A stretch of DNA of 8,078 nucleotides from a virus (lineage: Duplodnaviria > Heunggongvirae > Uroviricota > Caudoviricetes), in IMG/VR virus record IMGVR_UViG_2606217173_000005, one strand, 5' to 3'. Both the position numbers and the translations under genes were made by a program. Below the pieces are notes generated by a model. It was not told where the DNA came from. It ran no database searches and saw only the letters and a program-made list of their open reading frames with translations. Shown piece by piece: positions 1 to 1,244 of this stretch (position 1 is its first letter; the number at the start of each line of letters is the position of its first letter).

Positions 1-981
1 TTAGTGAGATCTCTCCCACTGACGTATCATTTGGTCCACCCGAAACAGGTTGGCCAGGGTGAATAACATCGCCAGTTGGTTATCGTTTTTCAGCAGCCCC
101 TTGTATCTGGCTTTCACGAAGCCGAACTGCCGCTTGATGATGCGAAACGGGTGCTCTACCTTGGCACGGATGCTGGCTTTCATGTATTCGATGTTGATGG
201 CCGTTTTGTTCTTGCGCGGATGCTGCTTCAAGGTTTTTACCTTGCCGGGACGCTCGGCGATCAGCCAGTCCACATCCACCTCGGCCAGCTCCTCGCGCTG
301 TGGCGCTCCTTGGTAGCCGGCATCGGCTGAGACAAATTGCTCCTCTCCATGAAGCAGATTACCCAGCTGATTGAGGTCATGCTCGTTGGCCGCGGTGGTG
401 ACTAGGCTGTGGGTCAGGCCACTCTTGGCATCGACACCAATGTGGGCCTTCATGCCAAAGTGCCACTGATTGCCTTTCTTGGTCTGATGCATCTCCGGAT
501 CGCGTTGCTGCTCTTTGTTCTTGGTAGAGCTGGGTGCCTCAATGATGGTGGCATCCACCAAAGTGCCTTGGGTCATCATGACGCCTGCTTCGGCCAGCCA
601 GCGATTGATGGTCTTGAACAATTGACGGGCCAGTTGATGCTGCTCGAGCAGGTGGCGGAAATTCATGATGGTGGTGCGATCCGGCAGGGCGCTATCCAGG
701 GATAATCGGGCAAACAGGCGCATGGAGGCGATTTCGTACAGGGCATCTTCCATGGCACCGTCGCTCAGGTTGTACCAATGCTGCATGCAGTGAATACGCA
801 GCATGGTCTCCAGCGGATAGGGCCGTCGGCCATTGCCCGCCTTGGGATAAAACGGCTCGATGACAGCGGTCATATTCTGCCATGGCAGAATCTGCTCCAT
901 GCGGGAGAGGAAAATCTCTTTTCGGGTCTGACGGCGCTTAGTGCTGAATTCACTATCGGCGAAGGTGAGTTGATGGCTCAT
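1..981 (-). CDS. insH: IS5-family DDE transposase
   Basis: 326-aa [15 protein letters not shown]...MIRQWERSH recognised as E. coli IS5 transposase InsH; the window begins exactly at its stop codon. Confidence 0.93.
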
Positions 982-1033
982 GATGTCCCTCTGGGATGCG
1001 CTCCGGATGAATATGATGATCTCATATCAGGAA

Positions 1034-1049
1034 CTTGTTCGCACCTTCC
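1034..1049. repeat. IS5 terminal inverted repeat (transposase-proximal end)
   Basis: cttgttcgcaccttcc is the reverse complement of GGAAGGTGCGAACAAG; the element boundary at 1049 is followed by CTAG. Confidence 0.85.
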
Positions 1050-1244
1050 CTAGCGCAACATGCTCTGCTTATAGCAATTTCAAGCGACTTAAATGCATAT
1101 GGTGTTGTGTGTGAGTTCGACTGGAATGATGGAAATGGTCAGGAAGGATGGCCTCCAATGGATGGTAGTGAAGGAATAAGAATTACCGATATCGATACAT
1201 CAGGAATATTTGATTCAGATGATATGACTATCAAAGCCGCCTGA
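1050..1244 (+). pseudogene. 3' remnant (about 64 codons) of a gene apparently split by the IS5 insertion
   Basis: The reading frame is open from inside the IS end through 1244 (…CEFDWNDGNGQEGWPPMDGSEGIRITDIDTSGIFDSDDMTIKAA*); there is no start codon with an RBS inside the non-IS part; it is codirectional with the downstream operon. Function unknown. Confidence 0.35.

Follow-up and report, generated by a model that had tools for sequence, protein, structure and literature searches.

Results

An insertion sequence joined to the early-left genes of a prophage

The window, by which we mean the whole 8,078-nucleotide stretch of viral DNA analysed here, begins inside an insertion sequence on the minus strand and passes directly into the early-left region of a lambda-like prophage (Table 1). 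An exact search with the 322-amino-acid product of 1280–2248 placed it at positions 147–8224 of contig JHDH01000132.1 of assembly GCA_000601255.2 (the source contig, L008), to which it is identical and which itself starts at base 1 of the IS. All called genes from 1107 to 8078 lie on the plus strand, in agreement with the first-pass annotation, which had described every gene after the element as codirectional. The transposase gene is transcribed away from these phage genes, with its start codon at 981, 68 nucleotides from the junction. The first intact gene past the element has a strong Shine-Dalgarno sequence, AAGGAGGA, at 1269–1276. Beyond the TorI-like excisionase gene the source contig (8024–10606) carries a 159-amino-acid HTH_1 gene, which is a short dsdC-like remnant (dsdC encodes 311 amino acids in L001), and then the chromosomal genes dsdX and dsdA; no integrase gene adjoins that of the excisionase. 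We take this layout of the prophage end (TorI-like gene, dsdC remnant, dsdX) to resemble that of the KplE1/CPS-53 prophage of K-12. An Rfam search of the window returned no RNA family.

Table 1. Features of the window and of the IS-free relative L004 (coordinates refer to the window unless L004 is named)
Feature	Position	Strand	Basis or remarks
ISKpn26	1..1049	-	bases 147-1195 of the 1,195-bp element; window begins at the transposase stop codon
326-aa DDE transposase gene, intact (ins5A equivalent)	1..981	-	ORF list, NF033581, PF05598/PF01609
Terminal inverted repeat, 16 bp, GGAAGGTGCGAACAAG on minus strand	1034..1049	-	read directly; compared with the other end in L008
CTAG target site, right-hand copy of the expected 4-bp duplication	1050..1053	.	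single CTAG at the empty site of L004-L007 and L013
ea10 (DUF2528/PF10800) 3' remnant	1050..1244	+	last two bases of codon 59 (CTA), codons 60-122, stop
322-aa coiled-coil protein, first intact gene after the IS	1280..2248	+	RefSeq annotators: coiled-coil or 'TolA'
cIII	2273-2419	+	PF02061 Lambda_CIII on L008 called genes; RefSeq names
kil	2412-2525	+	PF06301 Lambda_Kil on L008 called genes; RefSeq names
62-aa ORF	2522-2710	+	gene calls
P-loop ATPase	2719-3399	+	gene calls and Pfam on L008/L024, annotation of relatives
195-aa protein, DUF669 in RefSeq relatives	3396-3983	+	
Anti-RecBCD protein	4007-4303	+	
DUF2737, Ead/Ea22, DUF4014, DUF551 and DUF4752 genes	within 2719..8078	+	Pfam/annotation of relatives
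TorI-like excisionase, end of prophage arm	7878-8078	+	
Hairpin and U tract, terminator candidate between ral and ea10	L004 9403-9424		-15.2 kcal/mol, z -3.2
Hairpin and U tract, terminator candidate between ral and ea10	L004 9549-9570		-12.9 kcal/mol, z -3.9

The element is ISKpn26

Positions 1–1052 of the window are 100% identical in nucleotide sequence to the annotated copy of ISKpn26 in E. coli KKo009 (L003), a match of such length that chance is not an issue; the name rests on the RefSeq label of the KKo009 transposase, 'IS5-like element ISKpn26 family transposase'. With 366.8 bits against the NCBIfam model for IS5 family transposases (NF033581, cut-off 140), the transposase belongs to the IS5 family, and the name IS5 given to the element in the first-pass annotation is right as a family name only. 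Compared with the IS5 copy in L002, the identity of ISKpn26 is 93.6% over the part in the window and 94.4% over the whole element; the 67 differences are concentrated in the transposase gene and in the region 5′ of its start codon, and the first 183 base pairs (L008 1–183) are the same in both elements, the first mismatch falling at base 184.

The 146 bases of ISKpn26 that precede the window lie on the source contig, which opens with the other inverted repeat. Such repeats are therefore found at both ends of the element, as GGAAGGTGCGAATAAG at L008 1–16 and as the reverse complement of GGAAGGTGCGAACAAG at 1034–1049 of the window, and the latter marks the end of the IS that holds the transposase promoter. 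ISKpn26 is best known for disrupting genes, for example mgrB in Klebsiella. In IS5, the −35 element of the ins5A promoter sits within the inverted repeat (PMC11894529).

The insertion splits ea10 at a rare CTAG

A CTAG at 1050–1053 directly adjoins the end of the IS at 1049; this had been noted before, and reading 1034–1049 and 1050–1053 confirmed both the end of the inverted repeat and its contact with the CTAG. The identical element in KKo009 has a CTAA at either end, which demonstrates that ISKpn26 duplicates a 4-bp YTAR target. Within the 7,029 nucleotides of phage DNA in the window CTAG occurs only three times (at 1050, 5134 and 5312), compared with about 26 occurrences expected from base composition. 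Because the sequence is both scarce in the phage DNA and preferred by the IS, the position of the insertion largely reflects where a preferred target exists.

At this site IS-free relatives read ...ATC ATG CTA GCG CAA..., with one CTAG inside a 122-amino-acid ea10 gene, and when the stretch at 1050–1244 was aligned to the intact gene of the relative L004 (9597–9965) it matched codons 60–122. Since the single CTAG lies inside the intact ea10 of L004, the insertion cuts ea10 after codon 59 and 1050–1244 is the coding 3′ half of the gene. The suggestion that the frame left open to 1244 belongs to a split phage gene is thus borne out: alignment to IS-free homologues rebuilt the interrupted gene, and the contrary possibility, that 1050–1244 is non-coding, falls away. 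A 45-amino-acid fragment called at 1107–1244 matches PF10800, as does the full-length gene, and the sources of the intact protein name it 'DUF2528 family protein' or 'Lambda prophage-derived protein ea10'.

The target within ea10, at 7001–7004 in L001, is polymorphic among prophages, being CTAG in some and CTGG in others. It is also worth recording that the 90%-identity protein cluster with full-length ea10 holds proteins of 47 and 54 amino acids named CIII, a grouping that is probably a clustering artefact arising from fused or mis-called ORFs.

A nearly identical IS-free relative is contig DABHGH010000008.1 of assembly GCA_013007385.1 (L004). Aligned with the source contig over 11,199 bp, from the CTAG across the early-left region into dsdX/dsdA, it shows six mismatches and no gaps, an identity of 99.946%. 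The same right junction was found in two more draft assemblies, GCA_000627905.1 and GCA_000627945.1, whose contigs likewise start within the IS, at IS bases 185 and 39; the start of one of these (L009) at base 185, just where identity with IS5 ends, indicates that the contigs break at a repeat. The junction was present in 0 of 5,426 complete E. coli genomes, and its sequence had no match in the species-representative genomes. Of 1,488 complete-genome records with ea10, 1,475 have the gene intact, and we accordingly rejected the idea that it is a hot spot for IS elements. Ral, N, cI and the 134-amino-acid protein of the IS-free allele are each found on hundreds to more than 1,000 contigs. A literature search on the assembly accessions found nothing.

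The insertion site within the pL operon

The DNA upstream of ea10 was read from all four IS-free relatives (L004–L007) that have the identical 322-amino-acid protein and enough upstream DNA. Their gene order is repressor, N, ral, ea10, the 322-amino-acid coiled-coil gene, cIII, kil and onward to the TorI-like excisionase. In L004 a lambda-type nutL lies at 8668–8698 (boxA CGCTCTTA, boxB GCCCTGAAGAAGGGC), the N is lambda-like, and Ral is named RAL_LAMBD by its sources; nutL and N also lie upstream in L005 and L007, and N, ral and ea10 are found in L006 as well. We infer the N/nutL context of the source prophage from these relatives. Judged by L004, N and ral precede the insertion point, which is about 1.1 kb from nutL on its downstream side and thus in the third gene of the operon. 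The earlier placement of the IS at the promoter-proximal end does not hold, given that nutL, N, ral and two terminator-like hairpins stand between pL and this site in the IS-free relatives.

The two hairpins, both between ral and ea10 (Table 1), suggest that ea10 and all genes downstream of it depend on N. By the same token, a polymerase that reaches the insertion in an induced cell should already be N-modified.

The left end of the element

If the IS arrived by simple insertion, its other end would adjoin ...TTAATCATGCTAG, and the left junction would read ...GTATTAATCATGCTAG followed at once by GGAAGGTGCGAATAAG..., with ral and N upstream; the synthetic left junction that corresponds to this is ...GCTGTATTAATCATGCTAG joined to GGAAGGTGCGAATAAGCGGG.... 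The predicted product of this junction would consist of residues 1–59 of ea10 followed by GKVRISGEILLG. Neither this fusion nor any partial form of it of 60–70 residues is present in the protein collection, no cluster representative found in a homology search with the fusion carries the fusion tail, and neither the species-representative genomes nor the JGI metagenomes contain the DNA string of the left junction. Since the first 183 bp of the element are shared with IS5, short reads fail to link the left flank wherever a genome has IS5 as well; contigs break at the IS, and these absences are weak evidence. The source contig, with its start at IS base 1, covers the right flank only, which leaves some room for a rearrangement.

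Among partial forms of ea10 of 58–70 amino acids, only those of 58 and 59 exist in the collection. Contigs with the 59-amino-acid form were considered as IS junctions and rejected: among the matches listed (L014–L023), nine of ten end at the CTAG/CTGG polymorphism and one continues with native sequence. These ends reflect assembly forks where prophage copies diverge rather than junctions with an IS; that many draft contigs end at this SNP is presumably because the genome holds two ea10-bearing prophages. Two contigs that start 1–2 nucleotides after the CTAG (L010 and L012) were likewise considered as further IS junctions and are better explained by the same fork.

An element in a related position was seen in E. 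coli LR-71-1 (L002 5006–6203), where IS5 lies 87 bp upstream of ea10 and its flanks differ, being TTAA to the left of the element and CTAA to the right of it. Beyond this IS5, NinX and rusA occupy the place of N, ral and the immunity region; the prophage, next to ybhC, is defective and has undergone a rearrangement associated with the IS.

Transcription signals around the junction

A consensus scan for sigma-70-like promoters on the plus strand of positions 1–2800 found none at 9 of 12 matches, and in a lenient scan of 944–1274, which covers the end of the IS, the junction and the ea10 remnant, the best candidate had 8 of 12 matches with a 15-nucleotide spacer. Scans of this kind may be blind to weak or activator-dependent promoters. 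Within that limit, they agree with the earlier statement that there is no convincing promoter between the IS and 1280.

Nor does the IS contain a convincing intrinsic terminator on the plus strand. The predicted ea10 fusion frame stops 38 nucleotides into the IS, leaving about 1.2 kb untranslated before the ribosome-binding site at 1269. In the plus-strand RNA, C exceeds G in IS bases 101–200 and 401–500, and such C-rich untranslated RNA could load Rho.

Other IS elements have entered the same operon in related prophages. In E. coli EC21Z-014 (L033 5449–7001) the ATP-binding gene is interrupted by a member of the IS5 family whose transposase is frameshifted, and in E. coli CUPF12 (hit H8) ISEc52 lies in the coiled-coil gene. 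The protein collection also holds N-terminal fragments of ea10 (P0112, P0120, P0130, P0137 and P0140) that are joined at different codons to unrelated tails, which we take to be read-through into the ends of IS2 and IS3-family elements. If this identity of the tails is right, IS elements would have entered ea10 independently several times across E. coli.

Discussion

The explanation that we favor, and that we regard as somewhat more probable than the opposite, is a recent insertion of ISKpn26 at a rare CTAG of a lambda-like prophage next to dsdC/dsdX, which split the non-essential gene ea10 after codon 59. The element is identified to the base and its orientation is plain, its right-hand junction is seen in the source contig, and the empty site exists in a nearly identical IS-free prophage. 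The arrival by simple transposition would predict a second CTAG at the left end. As pL is repressed in the lysogen, the insertion would be without regulatory effect there. Once the prophage is induced, polymerase coming from pL would be N-modified at nutL, about 1.1 kb upstream, a modification that would be needed in any case for the two terminators before ea10, and the modified polymerase would be expected to cross the 1.2-kb IS antisense to the transposase gene. On this account cIII, kil, the recombination genes and the excisionase would still be expressed, perhaps at a lower level. The main consequence would be the loss of Ea10, and the element would be a nearly neutral passenger rather than a regulatory device.

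The first-pass annotation had offered two effects of the element on the operon, to uncouple it from its pL-type promoter or to activate it. Part of the first survives, in that the IS probably does uncouple the operon from pL for unmodified polymerase; with the site lying after N, nutL and two hairpins, N-modified polymerase is expected to read through the IS after induction. It is in this light that we consider an otherwise similar simple insertion that would be strongly polar even after induction, with Rho stopping transcription in the 1.2 kb of untranslated antisense IS RNA. The early stop of the fusion frame, the long untranslated stretch up to 1269 and the excess of C over G in two segments of the element all speak for it, as do the presence of other IS elements in the same operon of related prophages (a different IS5-family element in L033, ISEc52 in H8) and the several other ea10::IS fusion fragments in the protein collection. 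Were it true, kil, cIII, the recombination genes and the TorI-like excisionase would be starved, and the prophage would be locked in and less toxic, a form of 'domestication'. However, N-modified complexes are processive over long distances and resist Rho-dependent as well as intrinsic terminators (PMC3526286), IS insertions are tolerated in lambda r14 and r32 on wild-type hosts (PMC4807359), and polymerase must already be N-modified to pass the two hairpins before ea10. Nor is there any sign of selection, the junction being confined to three draft assemblies and about 99% of the complete-genome records with ea10 having an intact copy. We therefore judge strong polarity after induction to be distinctly unlikely. 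A rearrangement, in which the DNA to the left (the 5′ half of ea10, ral, N and the immunity region) was deleted or inverted, either after the insertion or by recombination with another copy of IS5/ISKpn26, is unlikely but deserves more serious consideration. The early-left genes would then be cut off from both pL and N, and silent for good. The source contig reaches no further than IS base 1, the predicted fusion ORF and junction string were found nowhere that was searched, and E. coli LR-71-1, with its IS5 upstream of ea10 and replaced immunity region, provides a precedent. Yet a new transposition into the single CTAG of the empty site would produce precisely the right junction that is seen, and the flanking 11.2 kb are almost identical to an intact IS-free prophage; moreover, short-read contigs break in the repeat shared with IS5, which accounts for the missing left junction, as does the fact that a 59-amino-acid partial form of ea10 is indistinguishable from one produced by contigs that break at the SNP.

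The second proposed effect, activation of the downstream genes by an outward or hybrid promoter or by enhancement of a resident one, as IS5 does at bgl, glpFK, fucAO and flhDC, fares worse, and we find it scarcely credible. IS5-family elements are documented activators (PMC2753651; PMC11894529), and at bgl activation is independent of orientation (PMC2753651). The effect at glpFK requires only the 3′-terminal 177 bp of IS5, which lie beside the target promoter and are both needed and enough (PMC2753651). In the case of fucAO, transcription comes from the ins5A promoter, joined to a Crp site upstream of it, and proceeds through the IS in the sense direction (PMC11894529). [quoted passage not shown] The element in the window is turned the other way: instead of a distal ins5A promoter and a proximal 3′ end, it presents its ins5A 5′ end to the phage genes and is transcribed away from them. 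No outward, hybrid or resident promoter was detected on the plus strand by the scans described above, and constitutive expression of kil would be expected to be toxic, to judge from the known function of lambda Kil. One may also imagine that IS insertions in the ea10–cIII stretch of lambdoid pL operons are a recurrent and selected means of taming prophages, of which this ISKpn26 copy is one example. The other ea10::IS fragments and the IS elements in neighboring genes of related prophages hint at this, and partial polarity placed before kil, cIII, the recombination genes and the excisionase would then reduce toxicity and excision while the genes are kept; nonetheless, we consider so general a role very unlikely.

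Returning to the simple insertion that we prefer, we infer that it knocked out ea10 in a nearly neutral way, any polarity after induction being partial at most. It is an ordinary event, in which a known element entered a known non-essential prophage gene. A fitting annotation would be 'ISKpn26 insertion in ea10 (DUF2528)', not 'IS5 at the start of the pL operon', and the genes downstream should be assumed neither silenced nor activated. There is also a more general lesson in the assemblies, in that the end of a short-read contig can pass for an informative junction when it marks only an IS or a SNP that distinguishes two copies of a prophage.

It is informative to set this locus beside the systems that it resembles. 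The interrupted gene, like lambda ea10, encodes 122 amino acids and lies between ral and cIII, and UniProt-derived sources name it EA10; it differs from the lambda arrangement in being truncated here and in having a coiled-coil gene between ea10 and cIII, which is ordinary mosaic variation. The element shares with ISKpn26 elsewhere the 326-amino-acid DDE transposase, the 16-bp inverted repeats and the YTAR target with the 4-bp duplication of the KKo009 copy; what sets the present case apart is not the element but where it lies, within ea10 of a lambdoid prophage of E. coli. IS5 of E. coli K-12 is alike in family, length, inverted repeats and target preference, with an overall identity to ISKpn26 of about 94%. 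With the activated glpFK, fucAO and flhDC loci the present one has in common an IS5-family element upstream of codirectional genes, but here the ins5A promoter is proximal, no resident promoter was found, and the element has interrupted a gene partway along an operon.

A functional parallel is found in lambda itself, where the r14 and r32 insertions lie in the rightward pR operon. These insertion elements add termination, and the phages form plaques on wild-type hosts but not on nus mutants (PMC4807359). The IS in these mutants, as presumably also the one described here, follows a nut site within an early operon that needs N, and in the mutants N-modified polymerase overcomes the added termination (PMC4807359). 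In contrast to those laboratory mutants, the ISKpn26 copy is a natural insertion in a leftward prophage operon whose presumed dependence on N is read from its relatives. The strain that carries it could serve as a natural test of N-modified polymerase crossing an IS5-family element, an application of a principle established since the work on lambda r14 and r32.
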